Positions 20,495 to 38,647 of a DNA stretch of 64,000 nt are shown in pieces. The stretch's first letter is position 1. Each line of letters opens with the position of its first letter. The notes beneath the pieces are model-generated. The model did not search any database. It had not been told where the DNA came from and saw nothing but the letters and a program-made list of their open reading frames with translations. The stretch lies in contig OZ252214.1 in the NCBI GenBank assembly GCA_965248935.1, forward strand, positions 2,097,874 through 2,161,873, read 5' to 3'. The position numbers and the translations under genes are program-made. The DNA comes from Cellvibrionaceae bacterium. Its GTDB lineage: Bacteria; Pseudomonadota; Gammaproteobacteria; Pseudomonadales; Cellvibrionaceae.

Positions 20495-22213
20495 ATGAAT
20501 AGGTGTCGAAGCATGAAAGAGGAATTAACTCGTCGAGAAATATTAACTCGAATCGCAGCTCTAGGCGGAGCGGTGCCCCTGACGAAAGCTATGAGTGTGC
20601 TTGGTTTAATGCAAGCTGCCGACTTTGCCTACGCAAAAAAAACCAAAGACCCCAAAACCAACCCCAAACTTGGTAGAGGAAAAAAAGTCGCCATTATCGG
20701 TGCGGGCCTTTCGGGGCTTACCGCAGCCTATGAGCTTTCCCAATTGGGTTTTGAATGCCGTATTTTTGAAGCCGATAACCGCGCTAAAGGCCGAACCTTT
20801 ACTGTACGCCCAGACGGATCATCAGATAGCTGGTATCAAGAATTAGGACGGCAACCAGAAGTGTGTAATTTTGACGAGGTAGACGGTGTTGGTAGCCTGT
20901 ATTTTGAAGCTGGGGCCGGTCGAATCCCCTCTCACCACCGCACCGTATTAAACTATTGCAAAAAATTTGGCGTGAAACTGGAAAGCTTTATATTTGCCTC
21001 TAGAGCCAATTTAGTACGCAGCGATAATTTTAATAAAGGCAAACCCGTTCAGCTTCGCCGATTTAAACATAACCTTCGCGGATACCTAGCGGAAATGTTT
21101 CGCACAGTAGACCCAACACTGCTCGATGCCAAACTTACCGGTAAGGAGCAAGCCACCCTACTGGACGAGTTGAGCCAATCCTTCGGTGACTTAAATGAAC
21201 AAGGGGTGTATGGAGACAACCTAAGCCGTGCAGGTTATCGCCCACCCGGACCCGGCGCGGGCCACCAGTCTGGAGAGTACTGGAAACCCTTCGCATTTGC
21301 AGATTTGCTGCAAGCCAAAGATATTTGGGAAAAACAACTTTTTAATGATATGCGTTATTACTGGCAAACCAGTTTAATGCAACCTGTTGGCGGCATCGAC
21401 AATATAGCCGCTGCATTTATGCGGCAACCCACCCCTTCCGGTAAACGGGTTGGAAATTTAATATCCTTAAGCCGAAAGATTACCTCCATAAAACTTAACG
21501 ATAAACGCAACAAGGTTATTCTCCAAAGCCAACACGTAGACCAACTGGGCAATCATTTAGCGAAAGAGAGAGAAACATTTGAAGCCGACTATTGTATTTC
21601 CACTATTGCCCCGTCACTGTTAGCAAAAATAAATAACGATTTTTCAAGTGATTTTAAAAACGCGCTTAACAATGGGGTAAGCAATGTTTCCGCGTGTAAG
21701 GTTGCCTGGCAGGCTGAACGATTTTGGGAATCGGACAAGTATCAAATTTATGGTGGTATTAGCTGGACCTCCGATACTATTAGCCAAATTTGGTATCCGT
21801 CCACAGGTTTTCACAACCAGCGGGGTATTTTAACCGGCGCCTATTTGCGTGCAGGCGATGCAACAAAATTTGGCACTCACAGCCACAATAAACGGGTAAA
21901 AATTGCCTGGAAGCAAGGAGCAAAACTCCACGAAGAATTAAAACCGACAGCCAAAAATAGCAAAGGTCAACCCTATAATAATATTGATAAAGCCATGACG
22001 ATTGCCTGGCAAAATATGCCCTTTCAGGATGCCGGTTGGTATGACTGCACAGCAAAAGAGCACAAACCCTATTACAATACCATGCTCAAGGGGCAGAAGG
22101 GTCGATTCTTTATGGCTGGCGATGCGATGAGCTATATGCCTGGGTGGATGGAGGGTGCAATAACCGCAGGTTTAATGGCAAAAGATAATATTGTTAAAAA
22201 AGTGAAAGCGTAA
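20495..22213 (+). CDS. Tat-exported FAD-dependent amine oxidase (flavin monoamine oxidase / L-amino-acid oxidase family). ATG 20513 (MKEELTRREIL) is an alternative start.
   Basis: Twin-arginine motif TRREILTRIAALGGA. Dinucleotide-binding VAIIGAGLSGLTAAYEL...RIFEA. 572 aa. Confidence 0.75.
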   Translation: MNRCRSMKEELTRREILTRIAALGGAVPLTKAMSVLGLMQAADFAYAKKTKDPKTNPKLGRGKKVAIIGAGLSGLTAAYELSQLGFECRIFEADNRAKGRTFTVRPDGSSDSWYQELGRQPEVCNFDEVDGVGSLYFEAGAGRIPSHHRTVLNYCKKFGVKLESFIFASRANLVRSDNFNKGKPVQLRRFKHNLRGYLAEMFRTVDPTLLDAKLTGKEQATLLDELSQSFGDLNEQGVYGDNLSRAGYRPPGPGAGHQSGEYWKPFAFADLLQAKDIWEKQLFNDMRYYWQTSLMQPVGGIDNIAAAFMRQPTPSGKRVGNLISLSRKITSIKLNDKRNKVILQSQHVDQLGNHLAKERETFEADYCISTIAPSLLAKINNDFSSDFKNALNNGVSNVSACKVAWQAERFWESDKYQIYGGISWTSDTISQIWYPSTGFHNQRGILTGAYLRAGDATKFGTHSHNKRVKIAWKQGAKLHEELKPTAKNSKGQPYNNIDKAMTIAWQNMPFQDAGWYDCTAKEHKPYYNTMLKGQKGRFFMAGDAMSYMPGWMEGAITAGLMAKDNIVKKVKA

Positions 22214-22297
22214 ATTCATGCTTTTTTAAGTGCTAATCGTTAAGCCAGGGCCTGTTAACAGGCCCTAATACATTTTACAATTAAATATACTTTGCAA

Positions 22298-23842
22298 TTA
22301 AACAAACTCTATTGGGGGTAAATCTCCTTCATCGTCATCATCAGTATTTTTGATATTGGGTTGCTTAATACTGGACGGCTCAATAGCCTCTTGACTCTTC
22401 GCTGTTAATGCCTGATCGGCTATAGTTTGCCCTGTTAGATTTTCTGACGAAAAGGCCGCCGCACCCTTTGCCTTGGGTTCTTTCTCGGTGGATACAACCT
22501 TTTGCCTCTTCGGCAATTTTTTAACCAGTTTTCGACACTGCTCAGCCTTTTCACCCATATTAGGTAGATCATCTAAAGCCTCTGCCATAAGTTCGTAAGC
22601 ATCACCTAGATGCTCGAACCGAGGGAATTGCTTATGTAAGCCATTAATAAGTTTAATGGTCGATTTAGAATCTCCATTTTCTTTACAGGTTTGCGCAAGG
22701 GTAAACCTTAATTCTGGAGTATTAGGAATATAATCAGGGCAAACTCGCACTATCTGTTTGTATGCTAAATTGAGTTGATCCGTTCGGTTTGAACAAATAA
22801 GATAATCAAGGTAGGCAGACGCAAATTTTTTAAGATGGTTAGCGCTTCTTATTGCTATTAAAAAATCAAAATATTTTGGAATAAATTCCTTTTGTTTTGG
22901 AAAGTGAGTGAAAGCTGTTTTGTACAAACCCAATACCTCACTATACTCCCCCTCTTTAAGTTTAATATCAATGTTAACCATTAGCCTTTCATAAGGTGCG
23001 CGCTTCGTTTCATGTGTATTTTCCACAACCCGAGCAGTGTAGCCAAAAAGTGTCTGATACTGGAATATCATGTAACCCATTAAATGAAAAATAACAACCA
23101 TATAGTAGTTAGAGACTATGGATTGCAAAACTAAAGACAGAAATGAATAGTCGTTAGCAATGACCTCACTAATTAACCCAATAGAGGCCATCATAATCAT
23201 CAAGAATGCCAAAAGTAAACCATAGGGTAAGCCTACTGTTGAAATAAGTCTTATGGTATTTATTGGGTTTAGTGCTTCTACTACATTAGCACTCAATGCG
23301 AAACGAATTAGCATTGCCGGCAACCCTATAATAATCATAAAAGCCAGAAGCCCGGCAACTGTATGACCAAACAGATTATCGGCCCCTACAATTACAGCCC
23401 CCAAAATTCCCATCATCATTATAAGTTGCAAAATCAGCGTTAAACCACCTTCGTAGGCAGTCGTAATACTTGGGGCTATCATCTCCCCTTCAGAGGTTTT
23501 CTCCAAACAACGAAAACAATATTTCAGTAAAACACCCACTAAAATAAGATACCAAAAAAAAGTAAAGGGTACGTATGACAATACTGTAGTGAGGAATGAA
23601 ACACCAATAATCAAAACCAATGCCCCGGTTTTTAAAGGGTAACGAAAACTCTCTTGCAACCGGCGCCAAAAAGGTTCGACATTATTTGCCGTACCTAAAA
23701 ATTCGACCTCTTTTCGACAAACAAAACATTTTTCTGCTGTTTTCTTTTCCCCTTCATCGGTACAGTTATCACAACAATCGGTTTCACAATTGCCGCAATG
23801 GTAAGTAGCAGGTACAAGCGGATGATATTTGCAGTAATCCAT
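22298..23842 (-). CDS. Polytopic membrane protein with an N-terminal Cys-rich zinc-ribbon and a C-terminal alpha-helical (TPR-like) domain.
   Basis: YHCGNCETDCCDNCTD...CFVCRK, about 8 hydrophobic segments, then a soluble helical C-terminus. The start overlaps the rhomboid gene stop by 1 nt. Confidence 0.55.
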   Translation of the reverse strand: MDYCKYHPLVPATYHCGNCETDCCDNCTDEGEKKTAEKCFVCRKEVEFLGTANNVEPFWRRLQESFRYPLKTGALVLIIGVSFLTTVLSYVPFTFFWYLILVGVLLKYCFRCLEKTSEGEMIAPSITTAYEGGLTLILQLIMMMGILGAVIVGADNLFGHTVAGLLAFMIIIGLPAMLIRFALSANVVEALNPINTIRLISTVGLPYGLLLAFLMIMMASIGLISEVIANDYSFLSLVLQSIVSNYYMVVIFHLMGYMIFQYQTLFGYTARVVENTHETKRAPYERLMVNIDIKLKEGEYSEVLGLYKTAFTHFPKQKEFIPKYFDFLIAIRSANHLKKFASAYLDYLICSNRTDQLNLAYKQIVRVCPDYIPNTPELRFTLAQTCKENGDSKSTIKLINGLHKQFPRFEHLGDAYELMAEALDDLPNMGEKAEQCRKLVKKLPKRQKVVSTEKEPKAKGAAAFSSENLTGQTIADQALTAKSQEAIEPSSIKQPNIKNTDDDDEGDLPPIEFV

Positions 23843-25272
23843 TACACTGTCCTCACGGTTAGTTTTTGGGCTAGCTGAGCGTATTCCTGTTGTTTATTCT
23901 CATTGCCTAGGTTGCCATGTAAGATCGACAGTTTATTTGCCAAAAGGCCAAGAGAAGTATTTTGATTATTTTTCTTATAGGCTTGAGCAAATATTTTTTC
24001 AGAAGTATCGATATTGGGTAACGCTGTTAACTTCATACCTAGCTGAGCGAGGCTTTCATCTTCCATAATTTGAACAATACCTGGGTTTTCTGACCAAACT
24101 GATTCAATTTTAGCCAGTTCGTGGGGCATTAAATTATTAATGTTTAGCAATTCAATAATACTCTGCTTATATTCGTTGCCTTTTTTCAGTTTTAATAGGT
24201 TATAGCGGATAATCGCTAGCTCAAATATTAGGCCCTGCTCTTTTACCAGCTCACCTAGGACAGTATAAGCCGATTCAAATCGACAGGATTCAATACAAGC
24301 ATACACTTTTGCTAGCTTTTCTCGGTAAGGATTATAGTCCTGGTCTTCATCAATGTATTCTTGGTTGCGTGCTTTGGGGTCAAGAAAAGTCGAAATAAGC
24401 ATAAGCAGACTACCGGCGATAATACCCCCGGCATGAGCCATAAACGCCACATTAGAGTTGGGTTCACTAACATAACTGTATATTTCCTTGCCTAAATAGA
24501 ATGGCAAAATAAGCAGGGCTGGGGCACGAAAATACCCAACAAATATAAATAACCAGTAAAAAAATTCAATTTTTTTAAGCCTAAAGACTCCGAGGTACAT
24601 AGCCATTACACCGGAAATAGCTCCCGAAGCTCCAATGAGAGACACTGAGCTATTCATATCAAAAAGCATATGAAATACGCCGCCCGCTATTCCGCTCAAC
24701 AAATAAAATAAGAAAAAACGCAAATGACCTATTGCGGCTTCCACAGCAAAGCCACAGATAACAAGAAAAAACAGGTTGCCGACAAGATGCATTAACCCAC
24801 CATGCAAAAATTGGTGGGTAATTAAGGTTATGGGTTCCAAATTATTGGGTACAACACCCAAGGCAGCAGCGCTTGTTGATTGAATTAAATCGTCTATTTC
24901 CTTTCTATCTTCTTGCCAGTTTCTTTTACCGATAAGATTCAGTTGGTCTTTTTTATTTTCTAATAAATAATCATAAAAACCGTCTTTAAATAAAAACTCT
25001 AGTCCAAGTTCTTCATACAATTCGTCTTTATAGAGATACTCATATTCTTGCAACAACTCACCTTCTTCCCTGGAAACCAAATACTCTTTAAAGAACGGCC
25101 ATTCCTTTTTAACAAGTTCGTACTTATTGTAAAGTTCTATGGCTTCTTCGTACTTCTTAGTATCACCGGATTGATATAACAAAAATACCAATATATTGGT
25201 TATTACTATAAAGAAGAGAACAATGGGAGCGTGTTTCCAATCAAAACGCTTTTCGGTGGGTACAATAATCAT
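23842..25272 (-). CDS. Rhomboid-family intramembrane serine protease with a C-terminal TPR-like extension.
   Basis: HQFLHGGLMHLVGN, the catalytic GASGAISGVMAMY (GxSG) and the AHAGGIIAG His motif. 476 aa. Confidence 0.8.
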   Translation of the reverse strand: MIIVPTEKRFDWKHAPIVLFFIVITNILVFLLYQSGDTKKYEEAIELYNKYELVKKEWPFFKEYLVSREEGELLQEYEYLYKDELYEELGLEFLFKDGFYDYLLENKKDQLNLIGKRNWQEDRKEIDDLIQSTSAAALGVVPNNLEPITLITHQFLHGGLMHLVGNLFFLVICGFAVEAAIGHLRFFLFYLLSGIAGGVFHMLFDMNSSVSLIGASGAISGVMAMYLGVFRLKKIEFFYWLFIFVGYFRAPALLILPFYLGKEIYSYVSEPNSNVAFMAHAGGIIAGSLLMLISTFLDPKARNQEYIDEDQDYNPYREKLAKVYACIESCRFESAYTVLGELVKEQGLIFELAIIRYNLLKLKKGNEYKQSIIELLNINNLMPHELAKIESVWSENPGIVQIMEDESLAQLGMKLTALPNIDTSEKIFAQAYKKNNQNTSLGLLANKLSILHGNLGNENKQQEYAQLAQKLTVRTV

Positions 25273-25544
25273 TTCCGTTTTTCCTACGGCAAAGGACAGA
25301 TGTTCTTATTAATCTTAGCAATAATTTACCACTTCAGAATGGCGCTGCCTATCTAACTAGACCATTTTTCAAGCAAATAAGATGTATTTTTAGGGGGAAT
25401 GGCGGCCAAAATTCCTTTGGTGAGTGGACTCAGGTGCCAAGCGCTTTGCGCCCAGACATTAAAACATACGTTTAATTTCGCTAAATTTTTAGTTTCTAAT
25501 GTACCGCCGTACCGTTTTATCATCATTCGTCCTTGTATTACAGT

Positions 25545-28500
25545 TTATTTAATAGGCTTATGCTGAGTCACTTTCACATCAGTTTCTATGCTCTTTAATT
25601 TCTCAAAGACATCTTCTAATTTTTTGTGAGTACGTAAATCAATATTGAGCTTACCTTCCATTGCTCTCACAAGTGGGAAGATGGATGTTTCCAGAGTATC
25701 AGCGATAGTTTTTAATAACAGGTCTATCCCTGGCACAGGTTGGTTGACCACTTCCACTTGGTATTTAGCACCCGCTAAGGTTTTACTAATGGAATCCAGA
25801 GAGCCCAATAAAAGTTTTAGCTGCTCGCCATATTGGCTCCCCTGCTTAAGGGTGCGATTAATCACGGCAAGCTGTCTGGCTGTCATATCTTTAGCGTCTT
25901 TTTCTCCTAAGTTATTCGCACTATCAATAATTGCAGTGGAGATATTTTCCATATGACTGGTAAGTTCAGCTAATTGATTGGCAACCTTGGTACCCGAATC
26001 TGCATTTGCTCCACCCATGATACGATTTTTATTGAATTCTTTTTTGATATTTTCCCAGCGGACACTTTCTTCTTTCGTCAAAACGCCTCGGAGTTCTTTG
26101 AGTTTAAGCAGGTTCTCTTCTGCGCCGGTAGTTAATAATTGTGCTTCGCCAAGGTAATGGTCATTAATAACTTGCTGTAGCTCCTCTTCATTCATCACCG
26201 CAGAAACTTTTTCTGCCATTTTGTTCATATTGCGGTAACTACCTTGCAACTTAAATGAAGGTTCAGTTCGATAAATATCATCCTGTGCAGCAGACGCAAT
26301 ATATTGCTGGTTTACACTCAGTATCACGTCTCGAATTTTAAATAATTTTTGTAGCACGGACGTTATTTCATTCACTTCCGCAGCAGAGTAGTTGTGGGAT
26401 AAATCCGTAGTAGCTACCTCTAGCCCACGCGCTTTGTCCACAAGCTTATACACATCCGACATTTCCCGTGTCGCCATTGGGGCTAAAATAGGGTTGGATG
26501 TCAGTGTATTTTCCAGATAGCTCAATGCGAATACGTCATCCATTCCGCCCAATACGTCACCCAGGTTATAAATATCCGCACGGTTCGCCAGCATATCTGG
26601 GATTTTGAACATCTCACCGGATTCGGTGTAAGGGTTACCGGCCATAATCACGCAGAATTTACGGCCACGCATATCGTAAGTTTTTGTCTCACCTTTCCAT
26701 ATTCCCTCAATACGACGAGTACCATCACATAGCGAAATAAATTTTTGCAGAAATTCGGGGTTTGTATGTTGAATATCATCGAGATAGAGCATCACATTGC
26801 TGCCCATTTCTAAACCTAAATTTAGCTTTTCCAGTTCCTGCTTTGCGGTCGCATTGGGTGCTTGCTCAGGGTCCAGCGAATCCACTTCATGGCCTAGTGA
26901 TGGGCAGTTGATTTTCATAAAAATCAAACCCAATCGGCTGGCAACGTATTCCATTAATGTTGTTTTACCGTAACCAGGCGGCGAGATCATCATCAACAGC
27001 CCCATAAGATCCGTTCGCTTTTTGTCACCGAGGGTACCCATTTGCTTAGCGAGGTTGTCACCAATAATAGGGAGGTATGATTCGTTAATTAATTTATTTC
27101 GTACAAACGAACTTAAGGGTTTAGGCTTAAATTCATCCAGGCGAACAGACTTACGCTGCTCGTCTATCACTTGCTGACGAACATCGAGAAAATTAAAATA
27201 TTCAGGTATCAATACTTGCTGATGGTGTTTGAGTCTTGCTAAAAATTCATCGACAGCAATATCCAATTGTTGATTTTTTAATCGGCTATGTTGCCCCATT
27301 AAACCATTAACAGTAAAGTTTAGGTCTACCTCAGTATGACGGCGGCTTATTCGCTCCTCTGCATTCACAATAGCAATAGCTTCCGGTATATAGTGCGATA
27401 GCAATTCGTGATTGGAATTGTCCACCAATGCCTTGATCCAGGCGTGCGTCAATTGCCAGCGCTTCCCTGCCTGACCTTTAAGTTCCTTCAAGGCTGTTTG
27501 AAAGCCACGCCAAGCACCGGCAACATCCATTTCTTGCTTAAGCTTTTTCGCAAGATCACTCGCATATTTACTGGTGATAAATTCCAGTCGCTCTCTACTC
27601 AATTCGTAAACTAAATATTCCGCCGCGAGTAAATTTATTGCGGTACTGATTTCTACATTCAGGTCTTGAAGCTGAACATATTCCACTAATGCTTTATCTA
27701 CATCGCCAATAAGAAGTTTAAGTGCATCGGAACTAGCAAATGTTTTGTACATTTGGAGTGCAGACTGCGCTCTCACCGTCCATGTTTGTTGCTCCGATTC
27801 GCGTTGTGTATTTGCCCAGAAAATAGTCGCTAATGCGCGTGCATCTGGCGCAAACCTTAATAAATCACAACTTTCTAAGATAGGGAGTAGGGATTGTAGA
27901 ATAACGGCTGCGTCGTGATCGTGAATGCCTTTTTCGTAGCCTTCCTTGTACTTGGGCGTTGCATAAGCACGAATAACTTTTACTAGAGCTTCTTTTTGAG
28001 GGAGAAGTTCGCTTAGTTTTTCAATACTAAGATCGTTCTCTTTCGCCAACGCATCTTGGTAAATGCTATAAGCGAGGTATTCCGCACGATATACTTGATC
28101 ATTTTCTGAAGGGAGGCTCTGCTCCCAGTACTTTGCCAATTCCGTGAGCTTAGGGTGAGTCGCGGTTTCAAAAAAATCCGTTCCCGTTAAATGAAAACAC
28201 AATTTACCATTTCTAGGAATAATAGTAAGGTCCAGCTCTTGGGTATTCACACTGAACTTATGGCGTGGCCCCATTTTAATAACGTTGCCGCCATCTTCAT
28301 AAATATCCGCTTTATCGCGTAACGCTCGAACGGCTTGGTCCTTCGCCGCTTTTAAACGTGCATCAATATCGTCCGCTTTTACAGAGCTATCAAGATTGTG
28401 AAGGTTCTGAACCAACTCTCTACTTTTTAAAACCAACGAATCAGACGCGAAGTAGGTATTGAGTTCATCCACCGAGCTGAACTTCTTGATTCGACGGTTT

Positions 28501-30875
28501 ATATTTTCAATTATGCGTTCCGCTGCGTCTGCAATAGACTGAGCGCGACGTTGTTGTTCGTCTAACAATTGCTGCTTACGATTTTCGAAACTTTCGTAAA
28601 CTTCTTCTCGTTTGGCTACAATGTCGTTAAAAAAGTCGTCAAAGCCACTAAACTGACTTTCTAGCTCTTCCAGTTGTACCAATAAACGAGACATGTGCTC
28701 GTCGCATTTTGCCGGAGTGGAAGCCAAGCTTAGTGCATTGGATATACTCTGAGAGAACAACTTAAATTGAGCCGCAAACTGGGCAACCGCTTCACCCTGT
28801 CCTAGTTGTTTCTCTCTATTTTTCGCTTTAGCTCGTGTTTGGTTAAGCTTTGCGTAAACATCGGATATCGCGTCAATAATGGCCGTTCGTACAGTCGCAT
28901 CCGCCACTTGAAGCGTTGTCATCATTTCAGACAGTAGATCCAAGCCGCCAGCCAGTTTTTCTATCGCCTCTAGAGTAGGAGTAAGTTCGACTATTGTTGC
29001 CGCCGTCTCAATAACTTTTTCCAGTTCAATAAGTTCTTCTGAATAGGGTGCAAGCGCTGTATCTCTCGATAGAAATAATACTGTTTCTTTACCAAGCTTT
29101 TCTTGAGCTTCATTAATTTGTTCTTCGAGGATAGCAATTTTGTTTACATCTATATAACGATATTCCTTCAACGTCATTAAATGACCAAACTGATGCCTTA
29201 AACCATCCAACGCTTCAACGAACTCGCCCGGTGTTTGCCATCTATCAGGATGTATGGAGTCCAGTAATTTCTGCTGTTCCTTTTCTGTTTCTCTTAAAGC
29301 CTCTACTGAGTTCTTTCGAATACTTTCAACTTTTTCAAATTCGTCAAGAATAAGATCCGATGTATCAATTATTTCTTTTAAATCGTCATTAATACTTTGC
29401 GTTTCTGTTGATTCGATCCAGTGATAGGCATCATAAATTCTGCGCGTCGATTTTTGTAAGTCTTCATATAAATACGCAGACGGACTTTGATCATTGATCG
29501 CTCGACAAATACTATAGAGGTCAGAAATACCCCGAACTAATTCCGCATTGCCTATTTTTCCAAAAAAGGACTGGCTGCTAGGTGCGGCGGCGGCAAACTC
29601 TTCCGAGACGTACGGAGTCTGCCACACTTGCATAGGATGTACACGGGTAGGGTCTTCGCCTTCAGCATGGAATATAACCGATTCCCCATCGTCAAAAATG
29701 GTGTAACCGTGGCAATAAATTGGGTTTTGAAGTTGCTTAGTAATTAAGTTATAGGCGAATAGAGCAAAAATACCCTCTTTTTGTTCATAGAAAACATAGA
29801 GTACATCCTCTCCATTTGGAGACTTGATACATCGTTTGAAACGAAGACCTTTTAGGTCATCATCAAACCGCTTTTGTTCACCATTTTGTAAATAGTAACC
29901 ACCGGGAAATATTAATCCATGATTTTCAGGTAATTGTATGCACGATTCCCCTATTGCATCAATTCGATCAACCTGTTGATTGGTTGAATTAAATATAAGG
30001 TAGCGGTATTTTTCTTCTCTATAGGGTTTTATTTTTAATAAAACTAATTCACCCACTTCGGCGAAAAATATATCAGCGTCATCCAACGATTGGGTCTTAT
30101 CTTCAACAGTCTCGCTGTAAATGCCTCGTCCATCTTCAGTATTGTCTTCAACTTTAATGGTTAAATCACCATTTACGGTCTCAACAAAGACTTTATCCTG
30201 AATATTAAAATGTGGATGTTTACCATGCACACTGTATTCACGAGTTACCTCTCGCCATTCAAAATCATATTTGGGAGGCAACGCAATATCACGCTCGCCT
30301 CGGTTATCCATATAGGTAACCGATGTTTGGTCCGCAGAAATACTCCAACGAAATACACGTATATCAGAAACCTTCTCCCCTATTTGAAAAGCCGCCAGAA
30401 GTTTCTGATTTTTTACAACAATTTGAACTAGGCTTGCGTGTTTATAATAAGCGTATAATTCACCGAACTCTTTGCTAAATTGTGGGTCGGCTAAAAAGCT
30501 ATCCGTCATTGACTGAGGCGTCATTTCGAAATTATCGCCATTTTTCTCTAACGTATAGAGGGCGAAAACATCTTCGATTTTGGTTTCTTTTTTTAGGCCG
30601 AGAAAAACATTGTAGCCAAATACAAGCTGACGACCAACCTGAACAATATCACGCGCGGTACAGTTATTTTCTGTACGAACTCGGACACGTCCAACAACCG
30701 ACATATCTGTACTGCCAAATTCATCCGTCCGCGCTTGATTTAAGGTGCGCGCATTCACTTCTAAGCTTTTCCCTTGTTCCACCAAGCGCTTACGTATTAA
30801 TTCGTAAGCTCCACCTTCCGCAACCGCTTGGTTTATAGTACTCGCATTATTTTCATCAACGTTTTTATCAGCCAC
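25545..30875 (-). CDS. Giant (1776 aa) multidomain protein with a beta-rich N-terminal region, long coiled-coil/helical middle and one AAA+ ATPase domain of the AAA_5 (MoxR/McrB/dynein-like) type, encoded at about 26450-27010.
   Basis: Walker A MISPPGYGKTTL, Walker B VMLYLDDIQHTNPEFLQKFISLCD (compare DEINRAxPEVLNxLLxLLE) and a sensor-like CVIMAGNPY (compare ATMNP). It is co-directional with and 119 bp downstream of the flotillin gene. Confidence 0.7.
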   Translation of the reverse strand: MADKNVDENNASTINQAVAEGGAYELIRKRLVEQGKSLEVNARTLNQARTDEFGSTDMSVVGRVRVRTENNCTARDIVQVGRQLVFGYNVFLGLKKETKIEDVFALYTLEKNGDNFEMTPQSMTDSFLADPQFSKEFGELYAYYKHASLVQIVVKNQKLLAAFQIGEKVSDIRVFRWSISADQTSVTYMDNRGERDIALPPKYDFEWREVTREYSVHGKHPHFNIQDKVFVETVNGDLTIKVEDNTEDGRGIYSETVEDKTQSLDDADIFFAEVGELVLLKIKPYREEKYRYLIFNSTNQQVDRIDAIGESCIQLPENHGLIFPGGYYLQNGEQKRFDDDLKGLRFKRCIKSPNGEDVLYVFYEQKEGIFALFAYNLITKQLQNPIYCHGYTIFDDGESVIFHAEGEDPTRVHPMQVWQTPYVSEEFAAAAPSSQSFFGKIGNAELVRGISDLYSICRAINDQSPSAYLYEDLQKSTRRIYDAYHWIESTETQSINDDLKEIIDTSDLILDEFEKVESIRKNSVEALRETEKEQQKLLDSIHPDRWQTPGEFVEALDGLRHQFGHLMTLKEYRYIDVNKIAILEEQINEAQEKLGKETVLFLSRDTALAPYSEELIELEKVIETAATIVELTPTLEAIEKLAGGLDLLSEMMTTLQVADATVRTAIIDAISDVYAKLNQTRAKAKNREKQLGQGEAVAQFAAQFKLFSQSISNALSLASTPAKCDEHMSRLLVQLEELESQFSGFDDFFNDIVAKREEVYESFENRKQQLLDEQQRRAQSIADAAERIIENINRRIKKFSSVDELNTYFASDSLVLKSRELVQNLHNLDSSVKADDIDARLKAAKDQAVRALRDKADIYEDGGNVIKMGPRHKFSVNTQELDLTIIPRNGKLCFHLTGTDFFETATHPKLTELAKYWEQSLPSENDQVYRAEYLAYSIYQDALAKENDLSIEKLSELLPQKEALVKVIRAYATPKYKEGYEKGIHDHDAAVILQSLLPILESCDLLRFAPDARALATIFWANTQRESEQQTWTVRAQSALQMYKTFASSDALKLLIGDVDKALVEYVQLQDLNVEISTAINLLAAEYLVYELSRERLEFITSKYASDLAKKLKQEMDVAGAWRGFQTALKELKGQAGKRWQLTHAWIKALVDNSNHELLSHYIPEAIAIVNAEERISRRHTEVDLNFTVNGLMGQHSRLKNQQLDIAVDEFLARLKHHQQVLIPEYFNFLDVRQQVIDEQRKSVRLDEFKPKPLSSFVRNKLINESYLPIIGDNLAKQMGTLGDKKRTDLMGLLMMISPPGYGKTTLMEYVASRLGLIFMKINCPSLGHEVDSLDPEQAPNATAKQELEKLNLGLEMGSNVMLYLDDIQHTNPEFLQKFISLCDGTRRIEGIWKGETKTYDMRGRKFCVIMAGNPYTESGEMFKIPDMLANRADIYNLGDVLGGMDDVFALSYLENTLTSNPILAPMATREMSDVYKLVDKARGLEVATTDLSHNYSAAEVNEITSVLQKLFKIRDVILSVNQQYIASAAQDDIYRTEPSFKLQGSYRNMNKMAEKVSAVMNEEELQQVINDHYLGEAQLLTTGAEENLLKLKELRGVLTKEESVRWENIKKEFNKNRIMGGANADSGTKVANQLAELTSHMENISTAIIDSANNLGEKDAKDMTARQLAVINRTLKQGSQYGEQLKLLLGSLDSISKTLAGAKYQVEVVNQPVPGIDLLLKTIADTLETSIFPLVRAMEGKLNIDLRTHKKLEDVFEKLKSIETDVKVTQHKPIK

Positions 30876-30994
30876 GTAGAAACCTTCCTGTTGTTTGGCA
30901 CTTATGGCACTAGATATATGCCATAGAAATCAAAGAGTGAGAAGTTGAGTTAACAAGCCGTGAGACTGCCACGGCTTGTTTATTTTACACAGTT

Positions 30995-33016
30995 CTATTC
31001 GCCCGTTTTACCCGTGATGGTTTCCACCACTTTTCCGGCACTTTTGCCCAAAAGATTGGTAAGTAAATCCTGTACGGCTGGTGTTTCCTTCATAAAGGCT
31101 TCCACAGATTTACCCGCTGACAGCGATTTAGTAATGGTTTTAAGGAAATCACCGTCACCCCCAACAATATCGATATTCGCCTGTTTAAGCGCTTCTGCCA
31201 TAACTTGCGCTTGGTCGTTGGCAATCTCTTTATTTGCGGTAATGGCGGCCATGGCCTCTTCGAAGTTTTTCTCTAGCTCCATACGGAATTCTTCGTGCTC
31301 TCTAGACTGTTCAGTCATTGTATTGAGTGCATTAAATTTCTCAATCAAACCATGCGCTTCGTTAACAAATTTCGCTTTGGTCACGTCCGCATCAGCCATA
31401 CCTTTTTCACGATCCGCTTTTGCAACAGCAAGGCCCATTTGCTCTTCACCGGACGCCTCAGCACCCAATTTCTCTTCCATAACTTTTGCTTCTGCCAAAC
31501 CTTCTTTCTCTAGGGCAACAGCATGAGCTTCTTGACCTTTCGCTTCAGCGACCATTTTTTCTTCGATGACTTTTGCTTCGGCGATACCTTCTTTTTCCAT
31601 TGCGTCCGCTTTTGCTTCTTGTACTTGTGCGTCCGCTAAACCTGGTGCTGCTGTAGTAGCTTGTACACCCTCAGCAATTTTCTTCTCAGCTTCTGCCTGT
31701 TTAGCCGCCGCTTCCAACTCCGCTTGCGCGATGGTATTAATTTCTTTCGCTTTAAAGGTCGCTTTGGTCGCTTCCGCTTCCGAAGCTTTAACTTCTTTTA
31801 CCAAATCTTCTTCTGCGGCGGCATGAGCGGCGATAACGATGGCTTGCTTATTTCGGTCTGCTTCAGATACCACTCGTACTTCTTTAATTTTCTCTTCTTC
31901 TTGCGCCACGGTTTTCTCAACGGCAATTCGCTCACGAATCACATTGGCGATTTCACGTTTTTCATGTTCAAGTGCTTTTTCTTTCTCAATGGTCTGTAAC
32001 TCAACCTCACGCTCACGCGAAACAACTTCCAATTCCTGAGCGCGAGTAACTTTTTCGACTTCGATCACCACTGCGCGTTGTCGATTCTGCTCAGCGACTT
32101 CAATTTCACGTTGAACATTTTCATTTTGCACCGAAATTTCTTGATCGGCCACTAAGCGCGCCTGCTCAGATTTTTGGCGCTCTTCCTCTTGAACTTTTTT
32201 GGTTTCCGCTTCTTCACGCGCTTGAACACTTAGAACTTCACGCTGCTGCCTTGCAATTGCGTCTTTTTCTTGCAGTTCAAGCGATAGCATGGCTTCTTTT
32301 GTTTCAACATTCTTTTTCTTAATCGCCAGCTCTTCGTTTCGCTCTAACTCGTTGGTAACAACATTTTGTTCTGCGGTTAGCTGAGTAATCTTGCGAATAC
32401 CTTCAGAGTCCATAATATTGGATTCATCTAGGCTTTTCTTTGGCGTCTGCTCTAGATAATCAATAGCGACATCCTCTAAAGCGTAACCGTTCAAATCATC
32501 GCCAATAACTTCGACAATTTTCTCCCTAAACATAATTCTATTTTCAAATAAATCGGTAAATTCCATTTGTTTACCTACAGTTTTTAACGCTTCCGAAAAT
32601 TTTGCATTAAATAGTTCGTTTACTGCGGATTTGTCTGATGCACGATCTACGCTAATTGCCTTTGCGACACGTAATACATCTTCACGTGTTTCATTTACAC
32701 GAAGGTAGAAAGCAACGTTTATATCCGCACGAATATTATCTTTACAAATAAGACCATCACTTCCGCGCCTATCCACTTCCATGGTAATAAGAGAAATTTT
32801 CATTTCCTCTTTTTTGTGTATCACTGGGATAACAAAGGCACCTGTAAAACTCACCCTTGGTGTAGGGCCTAAGTCATTGACAATTAGCGCTGTGCCCTGC
32901 GGGACTTTGGTATAAAACGCCTTGAAAAAAATCGCTAACATTAGGATAAGGCCAACAAGACCACCTATAGCGATGAATACTCCGGCAAAAATTGATACAT
33001 CTGGCATAACAATCAC
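30995..33016 (-). CDS. Flotillin-like SPFH/band-7 protein (E. coli YqiK type) with a long Ala/Glu-rich coiled-coil C-terminus.
   Basis: An N-terminal TM segment, then an SPFH domain (..ALIVNDLGPTPRVSFTGAFVIPVIHK..), then repeated EAKxxEEK coiled-coil. 673 aa. Confidence 0.85.
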   Translation of the reverse strand: MIVMPDVSIFAGVFIAIGGLVGLILMLAIFFKAFYTKVPQGTALIVNDLGPTPRVSFTGAFVIPVIHKKEEMKISLITMEVDRRGSDGLICKDNIRADINVAFYLRVNETREDVLRVAKAISVDRASDKSAVNELFNAKFSEALKTVGKQMEFTDLFENRIMFREKIVEVIGDDLNGYALEDVAIDYLEQTPKKSLDESNIMDSEGIRKITQLTAEQNVVTNELERNEELAIKKKNVETKEAMLSLELQEKDAIARQQREVLSVQAREEAETKKVQEEERQKSEQARLVADQEISVQNENVQREIEVAEQNRQRAVVIEVEKVTRAQELEVVSREREVELQTIEKEKALEHEKREIANVIRERIAVEKTVAQEEEKIKEVRVVSEADRNKQAIVIAAHAAAEEDLVKEVKASEAEATKATFKAKEINTIAQAELEAAAKQAEAEKKIAEGVQATTAAPGLADAQVQEAKADAMEKEGIAEAKVIEEKMVAEAKGQEAHAVALEKEGLAEAKVMEEKLGAEASGEEQMGLAVAKADREKGMADADVTKAKFVNEAHGLIEKFNALNTMTEQSREHEEFRMELEKNFEEAMAAITANKEIANDQAQVMAEALKQANIDIVGGDGDFLKTITKSLSAGKSVEAFMKETPAVQDLLTNLLGKSAGKVVETITGKTGE

Positions 33017-33033
33017 TCCATTTGAGATTAAGA

Positions 33034-33711
33034 CTAATTTTTGAATTTATTTTCTGGAACTACTTGGTAGGTCCCTTTATTTCGGTCGTATTCGATAGGA
33101 ACGACGCGGTCCCCCTTTTTGAGTTCGTTTGGTTCATCTGCCCAAATTCTCAATAGCAAATCTGCGCCCATATCGTTCATCATTGCTTCGCCGAACGATG
33201 ATGTTACTTTGCTAGAACGAATAACAGCCACTTGCCCTAGCACGGTTTTTTCAACTGTTTTTCCCACTTTTTTGAAAAGCGGTCTTAAGGGTTTTATTAG
33301 GGCTGCCGTTACTTTTACGGCAATAAAGAATGAGCCAATAACCGTTCCAGTTCCCGCTAAGAAGGATAACGGACCTGATGGTACAAAATCGAAAAGGAAG
33401 AAAACAGTGTAGTAACAGATAATCCACGCCACAATGCTTAACAACGTTAGCATAATTGTTATGGGCACACCGATAAGCCCCCAACTTATTAGAAAGCCCG
33501 CCACGGCTTCTGCTGTTGCATTGTCCATATTCAAATCAACGTCAGCATCACCGTCGAAATCCAAGTCAAGATCAAAGATATCTAGGTCTAACATCCCCAG
33601 CACAGTAAACAGCCAGAGTACAACCATTACTCCCATAAAAACGGTAAAAATGGCGGTCGGAAATGAAAACGTGATCTTAAAAAATTCTTCAAACATAAGT
33701 GCAAACACCAT
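33034..33711 (-). CDS. YqiJ-like inner-membrane protein (DUF1449, NfeD-like short form). It is the first gene of the operon.
   Basis: 225 aa. Several TM helices plus a C-terminal soluble beta domain. The yqiJ-yqiK (flotillin) pairing is classical. Confidence 0.6.
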   Translation of the reverse strand: MVFALMFEEFFKITFSFPTAIFTVFMGVMVVLWLFTVLGMLDLDIFDLDLDFDGDADVDLNMDNATAEAVAGFLISWGLIGVPITIMLTLLSIVAWIICYYTVFFLFDFVPSGPLSFLAGTGTVIGSFFIAVKVTAALIKPLRPLFKKVGKTVEKTVLGQVAVIRSSKVTSSFGEAMMNDMGADLLLRIWADEPNELKKGDRVVPIEYDRNKGTYQVVPENKFKN

Positions 33712-33777
33712 TTTGGGTATTCCCTATTGCTCTATATTGTTAGTTAGCCAGCTATTGAGACCATATCAAAGAAGACG

Positions 33778-33963
33778 GACATAATATGTCGCATAAGACA
33801 TATTATGTCAACACTGTTAGGGGAAGAGTCATGTATTTCTCTAAATATCCATTATTAAAAATTGGCGATGCCCTTTTTAAACGTCCACACACAAAAATAC
33901 AAGAAAATTATTGTTGACATATTATGTCACGAGGATACACTAACTCCATCGACATAATATGTC
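33778..33963. promoter_or_regulatory. Divergent promoter region carrying four copies of the perfect 13-bp palindrome GACATA-N-TATGTC, at 33778-33790, 33797-33809, 33916-33928 and 33951-33963. The two inner copies each embed an outward-facing TTGACA -35 hexamer.
   Basis: Read directly. The sites are arranged symmetrically (outer copies with central A, inner copies with central T) between the yqiJ-like start (33711, minus) and the yjfI-like start (34007, plus). TTGACATATTATGTC and TTGACATAATATGTC give -35 boxes. Candidate -10s lie 17-19 bp away and run into the outer sites. Confidence 0.6.
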
Positions 33964-34006
33964 GCCAAAGGTGCCGACCAATAGGCACTCTATAAAGGGC
34001 CAATAG

Positions 34007-34414
34007 ATGACTCAATTACAGGAACTAATACAGCAGTTAAGTGATGCAAGCTACCAGGGGCATAGCTTCAATTGTCTGCCTATACCGGGTGAGCAAGAGG
34101 TTTTGCAGGTAACGGTTTCCGGTCAGGACGAGATACCTATCTACGTTACTGTGACGGAAACCCAGATTCTTTGCATCGTATACCTGTTTAGGGAGAGTGA
34201 GGTCAGAGATGACGCTTTTAACGAACTGAATGAACGATGTTTGCAAGTGAATGTGCCTATGCCGCTGTCGGCCTACGCCAAAATAGATGATCAATATGCG
34301 CTTTTCGGTGCCTTGTCGATCAATTCACTGTTCAACAATATTATGAAAGAAATAGTGACCTTAAGTGATAACTCAGTAGTCGCACTTGAAGTTGTTGAAG
34401 ACCTTCTGAAATAG
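34007..34414 (+). CDS. YjfI-like (DUF2170) protein, the conserved partner upstream of the PspA-family gene.
   Basis: 135 aa, 30-nt gap to the PspA-like gene. The E. coli yjfI-yjfJ arrangement is recalled from memory. Confidence 0.45.
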   Translation: MTQLQELIQQLSDASYQGHSFNCLPIPGEQEVLQVTVSGQDEIPIYVTVTETQILCIVYLFRESEVRDDAFNELNERCLQVNVPMPLSAYAKIDDQYALFGALSINSLFNNIMKEIVTLSDNSVVALEVVEDLLK

Positions 34415-34444
34415 GAAGCTTAACGCTAAATTGGAGAATCAGAG

Positions 34445-35131
34445 ATGAATGTTATGAAGAAGTTGCTCACCGCACTACGAGGTGGAGCCCGCGAAGTCGG
34501 CGAGGCAGTTATAGATGCTAACTCCATGCGCATATACGAGCAAGAAATTGAGGATGCAAGACAACATATCAACGAGGCGAAAGAAAGCCTCACTACCGTT
34601 ATGGCGCAAGAGATGCAACTGAAGCGTGAGATTACATCTCTGCAAGAACAGGTTGCCCAACATGAGGGGTATGCTCGTGAAGCCTTGGATAAAAATAACG
34701 AAACACTTGCTCTTCAAGTTGCCGAAAAAGTAGCTGTATTGGAAAACGAATTATTAGAACACAAGGGCAGCCAGGCCGTTTTGCTTGGTCAAGTGGATAG
34801 CTTGAAAACTCAAATCCGCGAAGGTGAAAAAACCATCGCGGACCACGAGCGACAACTATCAATGGTGAAAACTACGGACAGTGTGCAAAAGGCAACGATT
34901 GCTATCTCGGAGAATATAGCGGCAAATAACTCGCAGTTAAATTCAGCAAAAGAGTCGCTTGAACGGATTCGAAAGCGACAACAACAAACAACAGACAAAC
35001 TCGTAGCAGGAAAGCAGTTAGCAGACGAGGACGCCGATACGGTTCTTCAATCCAAGCTCAAGGATGCGGGCATTATCACTCAGGAAAATACGGGTGCGTC
35101 CGTTTTGGAACGCTTGAAAAAGGGTTCTTAA
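34445..35131 (+). CDS. PspA/IM30 (Vipp1/ESCRT-III superfamily) family protein, YjfJ-like.
   Basis: 228 aa, all-helical with heptad-rich sequence. The N-terminus MxxMKKLLTALRGGAREVGEAVIDANSMRIYEQEIEDARQHINEAKESL is typical of the PspA family. Confidence 0.8.
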   Translation: MNVMKKLLTALRGGAREVGEAVIDANSMRIYEQEIEDARQHINEAKESLTTVMAQEMQLKREITSLQEQVAQHEGYAREALDKNNETLALQVAEKVAVLENELLEHKGSQAVLLGQVDSLKTQIREGEKTIADHERQLSMVKTTDSVQKATIAISENIAANNSQLNSAKESLERIRKRQQQTTDKLVAGKQLADEDADTVLQSKLKDAGIITQENTGASVLERLKKGS

Positions 35132-35382
35132 TCAAAGCTTTGTAAGATATTAAGGAAAATGGAAAAACAGTGGGTAAGGGATACCCTATGGCGCTGGCAT
35201 CGAAGCCAGCATAAGGACAATCGCTGGAAGCGATATTGACAAGGAATTTGTATAGGAACTGTTTTTCTAAAGGAGCAAAAACGCAAGGGATTGCTGAATA
35301 GGAAGTTCAAACAAAGCTTTTAACGGCTTAGGTATCCCATAGCCTAAGCCATTTCTCCCACGAAGTTTATCTCCGTGGGATT

Positions 35383-35727
35383 TTGTCGTTATCGGTTAAC
35401 ACTATGACTAAAGATACACTCTGGGAAAAAGAAAGGCAGGCGGTCAAAGCAACGCAGATCGCTTTTGATATTGGCGTGGAAACCCAAACCACAATTAAGA
35501 AATATGCCTTGGACAATGCCTTAACCCCCTCCGATCAAATTCGAAAGATACTTGGGCTCTATGTAAAAAGTAAACCCGTCAGACCCCGCCTAACTATCTC
35601 GTTAACCGATGACGACTTTCATGTTCTTGCCAAAAAATATAATATTGACCCTGAAAATAAAATTAAAATCAAAGAGCTTGCGGCTTTGGAATTAATTGAT
35701 TTCGCCCAAGATTTGAATAAGGAATAA
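35383..35727 (+). CDS. Hypothetical small protein, possibly DNA-binding.
   Basis: 114 aa. ..RPRLTISLTDDDFHVLAKKYNI.. resembles a ribbon-helix-helix strand-helix. Speculative. Confidence 0.3.
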   Translation: MSLSVNTMTKDTLWEKERQAVKATQIAFDIGVETQTTIKKYALDNALTPSDQIRKILGLYVKSKPVRPRLTISLTDDDFHVLAKKYNIDPENKIKIKELAALELIDFAQDLNKE

Positions 35728-36222
35728 ACCCTATGAAATGCACAGCTTGCTCACCAGCTTAATAGTGTCTTTACCAACGCTTGGCAAGCAGGTTTACGCG
35801 CAAAACACAGCGAACAAGTATTTGAGGCAATGTATACAAAAGATTTTGGCGAGGAAGCCTATACAAAGATTAAAGAATTTAAACAGTGGTTGGATAAGCA
35901 AGACGCTATCGATTTAACGTCTCCATTTATTCAAACTCAAACACTGAGGATTTTAGACTGTTTTTATAGAGCCACACCACAGACAGGTGCCTAAGAAAGG
36001 AACTAAACCTTAGCATTTTGTTAGGCTTAGAAGCTGGTCGAACTATTGAGCCAAATACGATGCTGAGAGATGCCAATTCGCCTCGCCAAGATAATTTTTA
36101 TGATGCCAATCTGTGGGATTTTTTGGATCAAAGTGACTCTTTAGTTGCGTTGCTTTTAAACTTTGCCATCGCTGAAACTCAACTGATTATATTGGTGTCC
36201 GCTAAGGGTCACTTGCCCCTGT

Positions 36223-36500
36223 TTATGAAAACAACTCCGAATGGCTACCTGTTCGCACAAGATCAATTACTTTTTCCTCTTCATTAACCCGATAAATTAA
36301 GAGCCAGTCGGGTTCGATATGGCACTCCCAATGCCCAACATAATTACCTGTAAGATTATGATCTCGATTGCTTACTGGCAGTGCTTCACCCGAGGTTAAA
36401 AGCTCCAATATGATATGGAGCTTTTGCACATTTTTACTTTGACGCTTGCACTTCTTGAGAGGTCACGTTTAAATTTATTAGATGCGAATAATTCGTACAT
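36223..36500 (-). pseudogene. yafQ: YafQ-like (RelE/ParE-fold) toxin gene with a frameshift in codons 14-16.
   Basis: ATG 36500 overlaps the dinJ stop (TAATG). It encodes MYELFASNKFKRDL.., then must shift frame near CTCTC (36455-36461) to join ..KKCKRQSKNVQKLHIILELL...HWECHIEPDWLLIYRV...RTGSHSELFS. The tracked ORF is the 68-aa GTG-started piece. Confidence 0.65.
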
Positions 36501-36763
36501 TAGATATCTAAGTCTTTAAACATGGCATCTGCATCCTTATATCGTGTACCTTGTCCGTTCTCGATCTCTTTCATAGCTTCTAATGTTTCAACATTAGGCA
36601 CTTTTGCTTTTGGCTGGAAAGGCAAGCCCCCTATATTTACGGATTGTTGCAGAAACAGGCGGATTGCATCGGATGTTTTTAACCCCATAGAGGCAAACAC
36701 AGCCTCTGCCTGAGCCTTTAACTCTGCTGAAACACGCGCTTGAACTGTATCGTTAGTAGCCAT
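36500..36763 (-). CDS. dinJ: DinJ/RelB-family antitoxin.
   Basis: MATNDTVQARVSAELKAQAEAVFASMGLKTSDAIRLFL...LPF matches DinJ (MAANAFVRARIDEDLKNQAADVLAGMGLTISD..). Confidence 0.8.
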   Translation of the reverse strand: MATNDTVQARVSAELKAQAEAVFASMGLKTSDAIRLFLQQSVNIGGLPFQPKAKVPNVETLEAMKEIENGQGTRYKDADAMFKDLDI

Positions 36764-36868
36764 ATCAAAACCTCTGCGTACTTATCATTACTACAACACC
36801 TACAAAGATAACCAACGATAACCAAGACATCCATACCAACCCCTTCGCACAACGCATAAAACGTTAGT

Positions 36869-37138
36869 CTAGTGCTGGTCGTAATGGCCACCTATAGCGA
36901 AGATGTAGATATAGTTATCATCAAATTTATAGATTACGCGGTCTTTTTGACTCAATCTTCGGGACCAAAGGCCAGAAAGATTATGCTTTAGTGGCTCGGG
37001 TTTTCCTGTTCCGTGAGCGGGGTCATCACGCATCATTTCTTTGAGTTGTCGGCATAAAACCTTATGTAGCTTTTTATCTTTCTCACGTAATTTCTCATAT
37101 TCTTGCCAAGTACTTCCTTCAAAGACCAGTGATCTCAC
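36869..37138 (-). CDS. yoeB: YoeB/Txe-family toxin (mRNA interferase).
   Basis: ...HGTGKPEPLKHNLSGLWSRRLSQKDRVIYKF... matches the YoeB core almost exactly. Confidence 0.85.
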   Translation of the reverse strand: MRSLVFEGSTWQEYEKLREKDKKLHKVLCRQLKEMMRDDPAHGTGKPEPLKHNLSGLWSRRLSQKDRVIYKFDDNYIYIFAIGGHYDQH

Positions 37139-37391: not shown

Positions 37392-37503
37392 AAATCCACC
37401 TTGAGTTAGTGTACGGTATTTCCGTACATTATAGGGCGCAAGCCTTAACAAGTGCAAGCAGCAGCGCACACACTGTGTGGCTGGACAGCCATTACGCTGC
37501 GCT

Positions 37504-37914: not shown

Positions 37915-37979
37915 TGAGTTATCGTATCTCTTCGGTAATTGAGGCCGCTATATTAACTGAAAACTTTCTAGGTTTGGTA

Positions 37980-38255: not shown

Positions 38256-38351
38256 CAGGAAATGTAAAAATAAATGAAAAATGGTTGAATGGCCTATTTT
38301 TGTGATTTTTATTAGTGCTTACAAAATCGATGCTTACGGAAAAATCGATAG

Positions 38352-38612: not shown

Positions 38613-38647
38613 TTGAGCTTCTCTTTTAAATATTTTTGTTCAAATGT

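Follow-up and report, generated by a model that had tools for sequence, protein, structure and literature searches.

The locus considered here, in a 64,000-nucleotide stretch of a Cellvibrionaceae genome (contig OZ252214.1 of assembly GCA_965248935.1, positions 2,097,874 to 2,161,873; the whole stretch is referred to below as the window), matches the partly studied 'biofilm-associated cluster' bacABCDEF (PA3732-PA3727) of Pseudomonas aeruginosa. In that organism the genes encode, in order, a DUF2170 protein, PspA, a 213-residue protein, a 688-residue flotillin, a 1746-residue DUF3686-AAA protein and a PLD protein, and the six genes bacA to bacF were found to be co-transcribed by reverse transcription PCR (Wallart et al, 2024, PMC10948618). 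The same study identified bacE as PA14_16190, the giant ATPase, and bacF as the PLD gene, proposed a sigma-54 promoter upstream of bacA, reported a phenotype and a chaperone-like crystal structure for BacA, with YjfI/DUF2170 ascribed to the CesT/Tir-type chaperone fold, and observed in a bacA mutant a 6-13 fold rise of all products of the cluster (PMC10948618). Macé et al (2008, PMC2587700) found PA3731 to be inducible by osmotic shock, and mutation of the gene to impair biofilm formation, swarming and virulence. A PspA-CesT/Tir-Band7-AAA+ context containing a CesT/Tir(YjfI)-PspA dyad, a YqiJ/YuaF protein with three transmembrane segments and sometimes a PLD hydrolase was described by Ravi et al (2024, mSystems, PMC11237479), who also noted shorter operons without PspA. 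The neighbourhood is, then, of a kind already known, although the original prediction, made from the DNA letters without database searches, had linked it to no characterised system.

In the window five long open reading frames (ORFs) lie on the minus strand within 22298-33711 and two on the plus strand within 34007-35131, in agreement with the coordinates of the original prediction. Reading leftwards from a shared divergent control region (33712-34006), the minus strand encodes a YqiJ-like membrane protein of the short NfeD type (BacC-like; 225 residues, 33034-33711), a YqiK-type flotillin (BacD/PaFlo3-like; 673 residues as an ORF, 30995-33016) and a giant cytoplasmic ATPase (BacE/PA3728-like; 1776 residues, 25545-30875). 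The plus strand encodes YjfI (BacA-like; 34007-34414), which matches PF09938/DUF2170 with an E-value of 6e-37 and the NCBIfam BacA model with one of 8e-16, under the cut-off of that model, and a PspA/IM30-family protein of the YjfJ type (BacB-like; 34445-35131), which matches PF04012 with an E-value of 1e-33 and 117 bits against a cut-off of 33.9. The DUF2170 (CesT/Tir-like) gene directly followed by the PspA_IM30 gene is as in the published cluster, and in P. aeruginosa the 1746-residue protein whose gene comes next to that of the flotillin shares its set of Pfam domains with the giant protein of the window. Relative to P. aeruginosa this is a variant form, with a divergent layout, no PLD gene and putative control by a probable ribbon-helix-helix (RHH) protein and palindromic operators replacing the proposed sigma-54 promoter. 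It would seem probable, with appreciable room for doubt, that the region represents the 'BAC' or PspA-flotillin-AAA+ envelope-stress cluster in this organism and that it works by the mechanism proposed below.

The giant ATPase and the adjoining flotillin

The giant gene starts 119 nt past the flotillin stop codon and encodes a protein in which a helix is followed by a beta-propeller, a helical region of about 850 residues, a MoxR-like AAA+ module and a helical tail; no transmembrane segment is predicted from its hydropathy. Pfam assigns residues 38-485 to DUF3686 (PF12458, E-value 4e-207) and residues 607-690 to DUF7902 (PF25472), and residues 1292-1417 match both AAA (26.6 bits, cut-off 21.2) and AAA_5 (24.5 bits, cut-off 22) weakly. 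The AlphaFold2 model of the propeller domain (residues ~59-420, corresponding to DUF3686; 29616-30701, minus strand) has about 27 strands and a predicted local distance difference test score (pLDDT) of 81. Compared with the PDB using Foldseek it gave 64 matches with E ≤ 1e-3, the 50 that were listed all being beta-propeller proteins, and Sec12, WD40 proteins, prolyl oligopeptidase and CyRPA are among the matches.

The AAA+ core (residues ~1290-1470; 26466-27008, minus strand) contains the Walker A motif SPPGYGKTT, the Walker B motif LYLDDIQH and the sensor-1 motif AGNPY, and the segment PDMLANRAD probably holds the arginine finger, Arg1432. Gly1301 to Thr1306 of Walker A, Asp1366 and Asp1367 of Walker B, Asn1414 of sensor-1 and Arg1432 are invariant in 28 homologues that share 33-54% identity. 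For the model of residues 1150-1776 (pLDDT 63.5) the best Foldseek matches were all AAA+ ATPases, with the MoxR proteins NorQ/CbbQ ranked first and MCM, ClpA, RuvB, HslU and Lon following, at E-values between 2e-3 and 1e-2. We take the pattern of DDIQH followed by NPYTE...IPDMLANR to resemble the MoxR/AAA_5 signature. An AAA+ module of MoxR/dynein flavour is supported at the level of the superfamily and plausible at the level of the clade, and the earlier reading of the protein as an AAA+ ATPase, probably of the MoxR/AAA_5 type, that begins with a beta-rich part is supported.

The family is large, with more than 6451 clusters of homologues at 90% identity and, at 50% identity, 867 clusters with E ≤ 1e-3, mostly of 1600-1900 residues. 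Homology extends over the full length (100% query coverage) to gammaproteobacterial proteins with the same Pfam set of DUF3686, DUF7902 and AAA. In NCBI, UniRef and Pfam the homologues or PF12458 are named 'DNA repair ATPase' or 'ATPase involved in DNA repair', and were these names to be followed the giant protein would act in DNA repair and its position among membrane genes would be incidental. The weak RuvB matches point the same way, but they are confined to the P-loop region, about 45 residues surrounding Walker A; searches revealed no domain of the DNA-binding, nuclease or SMC/Rad50/RecF type, and a flotillin gene adjoins the giant gene in all 77 of the loci from several phyla in which this could be assessed (see below). 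A role in DNA repair is scarcely credible on this evidence, and the name is very probably a misnomer that looks inherited, no basis for it being seen in sequence, fold or context. Searches of Pfam, NCBIfam and the PDB sequences gave no match of the SMC, Rad50, RecF or RecN type, the PDB sequence search giving nothing usable at all, and the Pfam and structure-prediction check that had been proposed for the protein thus does not place it among the SMC- or RecF-type ATPases. Literature searches for DUF3686 or PF12458, within the library used, returned no mention of either, and literature searches for the giant ATPase returned no biochemical or structural work; those directed at more recent studies of an AAA+ ATPase associated with flotillin led back to the papers cited here.

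For the 225- and 673-residue proteins no Pfam match, even at E ≤ 10, and no PDB sequence match was obtained, so that the YqiJ-like and flotillin labels needed a separate test. The yqiJ and yqiK genes of Escherichia coli were fetched and compared with profiles of the two families using hhalign. The profile of the 225-residue family matched YqiJ (94.8%, E-value 5e-8), and that of the flotillin family matched YqiK over residues 16-473 (99.85%, E-value 7e-31), a match that is taken as decisive for the predicted SPFH/flotillin identity. Band_7 (PF01145) was matched by four of 14 flotillin orthologues, with a best E-value of 5e-8, and was not matched by the protein of the window even at E ≤ 10. PDB searches started from profiles of the flotillin, YqiJ-like and RHH families yielded no usable match. 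Hydropathy predicts three to four transmembrane segments in the YqiJ-like protein, which also has a C-terminal soluble domain; the flotillin has one N-terminal transmembrane segment, the SPFH domain and a long helical region rich in Glu and Ala. An annotated homologue of the flotillin begins three codons later and has 670 residues, and the flotillin of the window is likewise probably 670 residues long, starting from the ATG at 33007.

The flotillin of the window shares 66% identity with P0231, a flotillin family protein of P. aeruginosa. Members of this subfamily (P0121-P0240) are 64-69% identical across Pseudomonas and Lysobacter, with 925 member sequences in P. aeruginosa, and carry no precomputed Pfam domain; their failure with the Band_7 model represents a gap in Pfam coverage. 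An ORF of 188 codons antisense to the flotillin gene (30960-31526, plus strand) is of low complexity, rich in Ser, Ala and Leu, and is almost certainly not a gene; similar ORFs were seen in 38 GC-rich loci.

Conservation of the gene neighbourhood

A scan of one genome per species gave 581 relatives of the giant protein, of which the 80 best-scoring loci (43-62% identity to the query) were retrieved together with flanks of 10 kb. All ORFs of these loci were searched with iterated hidden Markov models built from the proteins of the window, and the counts given here come from these searches, since greedy ORF calls gave spurious antisense ORFs in GC-rich loci. The 80 loci span Gamma-, Beta- and Zetaproteobacteria, Myxococcota, Actinomycetota and one metagenome-assembled genome (MAG) of the Clostridia; a Thermoanaerobaculia MAG among them is truncated and uninformative on upstream linkage.

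In 77 of the 80 loci the giant gene is immediately preceded by a flotillin gene of the same orientation, with a median gap of 92 nt; the remaining three start inside the giant gene, so that the linkage holds in 77 of 77 assessable loci. The flotillin gene is itself preceded by a YqiJ-like gene in 73 loci, the other seven having too little upstream DNA. The invariant core of the cluster is therefore a triad of the YqiJ-like protein, the YqiK-type flotillin and the giant propeller/helical/MoxR-like AAA+ protein. YjfI and PspA are a frequent add-on to this triad, being present in 37 of the 80 loci (46%), all of them proteobacterial; they are co-directional and upstream in 34 loci and divergent, as in the window, in three Marinobacter loci. 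The divergent arrangement is also found in the two closest relatives, Agaribacterium sp. ZY112 (L083) and the 83%-identical L084. Fifteen loci have a PLD-family gene after the giant gene, whereas phmmer found no PLD homologue in the window, where in place of the single co-directional operon ending in a PLD/HKD gene that typifies P. aeruginosa the arrangement is divergent. The earlier note had allowed that the adjacency of the genes might be incidental; the linkage of the giant gene to the flotillin and NfeD-like genes is instead conserved throughout the assessable loci, and that to pspA is frequent.

Two loci depart from the usual spacing. In a zetaproteobacterial MAG (L019, 7965-9998) and in Lampropedia hyalina (L031, 6591-9983) 2-3.4 kb separate the flotillin and giant genes, and the gap holds inserted material.

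The facultative nature of PspA bears on whether the giant ATPase might primarily be a remodeller of PspA, which is ESCRT-III-like, and so a functional analogue of Vps4, with flotillin a mere membrane platform. The linkage to PspA/YjfI in 37 loci and the operators shared with these genes in the window would fit such a role, Ravi et al grouped the cluster with other PspA-AAA+ associations (PMC11237479), and according to a 2025 review bacteria are without a Vps4-like regulator of PspA (PMC7619361). More than half of the loci, however, including all of those from Myxococcota, Actinomycetota and Stenotrophomonas, pair the ATPase with flotillin and have no PspA gene nearby. Pfam detects no MIT domain in the giant protein, the N-terminus of which is a helix followed by the beta-propeller, and its AAA+ module is MoxR-like rather than of the classic clade. 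PspA as the primary substrate is therefore unlikely, and of the parallel that had been drawn with the AAA ATPase of ESCRT-III only the analogy stands; membership of the Vps4 family does not.

Control region and proposed mechanism

The divergent start codons are separated by 295 bp, within which the 13-bp palindrome GACATAWTATGTC occurs in four exact copies, at 33778-33790, 33797-33809, 33916-33928 and 33951-33963, and there is no other exact copy within the 64 kb of the window. Two divergent sigma-70-like promoters have -35 elements TTGACA at 33811 (minus strand) and 33914 (plus strand), and each pair of palindromes overlaps one of these elements and reaches to about -10/+1. A site resembling the sigma-54 consensus (TGGCAC-N5-TTGCW, with up to two mismatches) was not found in 33712-34006. 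L083 and L084 also have all four sites. When one mismatch is tolerated, a further 11 loci have between one and three sites at the cluster promoter; these are from Marinobacter, Pseudoalteromonas, Thiodiazotropha, Massilia, Ideonella, Aquabacterium, Inhella and Acidovorax. At the same tolerance all sites of this type in the ~2 Mb of fetched DNA are at the promoter of the cluster. The shared, operator-rich control region that had been proposed from inspection of the DNA is thus confirmed, far beyond chance, and because the four operators are shared it is plausible that the two divergent units are co-regulated. A near-palindrome at 33968-33990 (GGTGCC-N8-GGCACT), past the last operator and ahead of the ribosome-binding site of yjfI, could be a hairpin in the 5' untranslated region or another protein-binding site.

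The gene after pspA (35404-35727, plus strand) encodes a 107-residue protein with homologues in 13 loci. The operator is present in 13 of the 14 sources with this gene and in one of the 71 without it (Fisher p 2.6e-13). The protein has two strand-helix units of the RPRLT type, and a few members of the family match RHH_1, RHH_9, RHH_10 or RHH_5, with a best E-value of 7.6e-4, although the protein of the window does not. Together with the co-occurrence this suggests a candidate repressor of tandem RHH type. The operator-repressor pair would offer a simple handle with which to induce the system in the gamma- and betaproteobacteria that carry it.

The following mechanism can be proposed. The 107-residue protein would repress both promoters through the GACATAWTATGTC operators until membrane stress lifts the repression. 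The flotillin, aided by the YqiJ-like protein, would then form a cage or patch of SPFH type against the inner membrane, on its cytoplasmic side. The giant ATPase may oligomerise through its AAA+ module and dock through its propeller and helical arm, and with ATP might build, reshape or clear away the flotillin scaffold or its clients. The PspA polymer, restrained by YjfI, would seal the damaged membrane. In its most specific form, which is put forward only tentatively, the DUF3686-AAA giant (BacE) would be a dedicated ATP-driven remodeller of flotillin cages and, where these are attached, of PspA/ESCRT-III polymers, making it the functional counterpart of Vps4, switched on in this lineage via a tandem-RHH repressor, not recognised before, that reads the four operators.

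Several observations weigh against this interpretation. Contact of the ATPase with flotillin or PspA is hypothetical. The AAA+ region was modelled with low confidence (pLDDT 63.5) and gave weak fold matches (E-value ~2e-3), the assignment to MoxR is largely motif-based, and Walker B has DD rather than DE. The RHH identity is weak, DNA binding by the 107-residue protein being suggested by co-occurrence, and P. aeruginosa has neither the RHH gene nor the operator, so that the regulation is not conserved. The mutant of the P. aeruginosa flotillin paFlo3 (bacD) has a mild phenotype, with ~20% less biofilm (2026 study, PMC13086221). The sample consists of the best 80 of 581 relatives, and more remote members of the family may have other contexts. 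The appearance of PA3729 in the pull-down tables for Arc3 was considered as an interaction and set aside as background.

The cluster might alternatively be an anti-phage or conflict system, acting by abortive infection or as a MoxR/beta-propeller threat sensor, in place of a housekeeping stress response. PA3728-PA3732 are up-regulated on phage infection (PMC12041424), though the classical Psp genes are likewise phage-induced, and the combination of MoxR AAA+ proteins and sensors of the beta-propeller type is a hallmark of the conflict systems that Aravind and colleagues described, as cited in PMC13622651. Toxin-antitoxin modules and an insertion sequence fragment adjoin the cluster in the window, AbiJ and deaminase genes are near it in Agaribacterium, and a PLD-type hydrolase accompanies it in the 15 loci noted above. 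Set against this, PADLOC returned nothing for the five leftward genes or YjfI, its matches of PspA to JetC/LmuB being coiled-coil noise; neither a vWA partner nor a recognisable toxin effector is present, and both sequence and gene order are highly conserved across phyla, with 925 near-identical flotillins in P. aeruginosa, unlike patchy defence islands. A defence function is accordingly quite improbable, and the suggestion of abortive infection in the original prediction finds no support from PADLOC.

To return to the remodelling of flotillin by the giant ATPase, the presence of this AAA+ protein beside a flotillin gene in every assessable sampled locus, across at least four phyla, makes it the obvious candidate for the factor behind assembly and turnover of bacterial flotillin scaffolds and for an ATPase partner of PspA/ESCRT-III polymers. 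The cluster affects biofilm formation and virulence in P. aeruginosa, where the effect of the giant ATPase on flotillin and PspA can already be addressed.

Adjoining genes and relation to known systems

Downstream of the giant gene, on the minus strand, lie genes for a 476-residue rhomboid (23842-25272; PF01694, E-value 1e-25), with 1+6 transmembrane segments and a long cytoplasmic tail, and for a 514-residue protein (22298-23842) with a weak B-box-like Zn finger, five to six predicted transmembrane segments and a weak TPR_14 match. The stop codon of the first and the start codon of the second overlap by ATGA and the Zn-ribbon gene is translationally coupled to the rhomboid gene. The rhomboid had been thought to carry a TPR tail; none was detected there, and the TPR signal is in the Zn-ribbon protein. 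Scans of the 272-nt gap between the giant and rhomboid genes found no terminator or promoter, so that read-through from the giant gene is possible and the pair may be co-transcribed with the cluster. A GC-rich hairpin at 22247-22266, between the convergent Zn-ribbon and amine-oxidase genes, probably ends the leftward transcription unit.

The Zn-ribbon protein has 254 homologues, named B-box, DUF4013 or TPR proteins, and in Teredinibacter, Motiliproteus and Aliikangiella these are encoded directly after a rhomboid of ~476 residues in unrelated surroundings with no giant ATPase, flotillin or PspA gene nearby. The partner gene of the rhomboid occurs in none of the 80 giant loci, and the arrangement of the window is shared only with L084. 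The pair was rejected as part of the system, which it had been proposed to extend by an intramembrane protease; we conclude that it is an independent dyad, with a separate, housekeeping role, juxtaposed to the cluster in this lineage.

A short rhomboid of 183-194 residues, from a distinct family, is by contrast an accessory gene that recurs in the cluster. In nine loci (L003, L006, L007, L009, L011, L015, L036, L037 and L047) it comes straight after the giant gene, often with a 4-nt overlap; it is divergent and upstream of yjfI in L004, and in Agaribacterium sp. ZY112 (L083, 4207-5647) ends a YjfI-PspA-RHH-Zn-ribbon operon, after the Zn-ribbon gene. The short rhomboids are mutually related (E-values 1e-17 to 1e-30). 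The long rhomboid of the window was rejected as their ortholog, the similarity being generic (1e-5 to 1e-8). The description of the cluster by Ravi et al does not mention a rhomboid (PMC11237479).

Beyond the candidate repressor gene two type II toxin-antitoxin pairs are arranged back to back on the minus strand (36223-37469): a YafQ toxin (36223-36429) with a RelB/DinJ antitoxin (36500-36763), and a YoeB toxin (36869-37138) with a Phd/YefM antitoxin (37119-37469). In L084 (3607-5110) the RHH gene is followed by a 182-residue double Zn-ribbon gene of the TFIIB type and MEKHLA, and then by DUF6122, DUF7531, DUF4265 and an M48 peptidase. The window (35728-37980 in this comparison) keeps the last four and has the two toxin-antitoxin pairs and a transposase helix-turn-helix fragment (37504-37713) in place of the first two, which looks like replacement by a mobile element. 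The M48 peptidase (39207-40505, plus strand), which retains synteny with L084, resembles a lipoprotein at its N-terminus, has a TPR region at its C-terminus and probably has no connection with the cluster. On the other side the flavin amine-oxidase family gene (20495-22213, plus strand), convergent with the Zn-ribbon gene, is linked to the cluster in none of the 80 loci. Rfam gave no match in 22000-39500.

Compared with bacABCDEF the window has the same five protein families, DUF2170/YjfI, PspA, the YqiJ-like protein, the flotillin (66% identical) and the DUF3686-AAA giant, and the same order within the triad. It differs in that YjfI-PspA is divergent from the triad and does not lead a single operon, in lacking bacF and any sigma-54-like site, in having four palindromic operators and an RHH-like gene that are absent from P. 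aeruginosa, and in the rhomboid/Zn-ribbon dyad that follows the ATPase gene. With the E. coli YqiJ-YqiK and Bacillus subtilis YuaF-FloT pairs it shares a membrane protein with an OB-like C-terminus followed by a flotillin of transmembrane, SPFH and coiled-coil parts, but these pairs have no giant ATPase, yqiJK in E. coli being followed by the sibD/ibsD small-RNA toxin loci, and the flotillin of the window is 120 residues longer and escapes the Pfam Band_7 model.

The giant protein resembles the MoxR ATPases RavA, CbbQ and NorQ in the motifs D[DE]I[NQ][RH] and NP...E...P..L..R, in its weak AAA_5 match and in that NorQ/CbbQ rank first among its weak fold matches. It differs from them in the DD of Walker B, in its fusion to an N-terminal propeller/helical region of ~1290 residues and ~300 residues of C-terminal helices, and in having no vWA partner gene, no VWA match being found among the genes of the window or the called genes of L001, L083 and L084.

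The nearest functional precedents are FtsH-HflK/C and Vps4-ESCRT-III, although the giant protein belongs to neither family. FtsH-HflK/C, cited in PMC13086221, is an established case of an SPFH cage that works with an AAA+ protein, and like m-AAA-prohibitin it couples an SPFH scaffold to an AAA+ machine at the inner membrane. FtsH, however, is a membrane-anchored protease of the classic AAA clade that is not encoded beside hflKC, whereas the giant protein is soluble and MoxR-like, with a beta-propeller and no protease domain. From Vps4-ESCRT-III (CdvC-CdvB) the cluster differs in the missing MIT domain, in the clade of its AAA+ module, in its facultative linkage to PspA and in having flotillin as the obligate partner of the ATPase. 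What it shares with that system is a polymer of the ESCRT-III superfamily, PspA, encoded beside an AAA+ ATPase, both being candidates for the ATP-driven turnover of a membrane scaffold.

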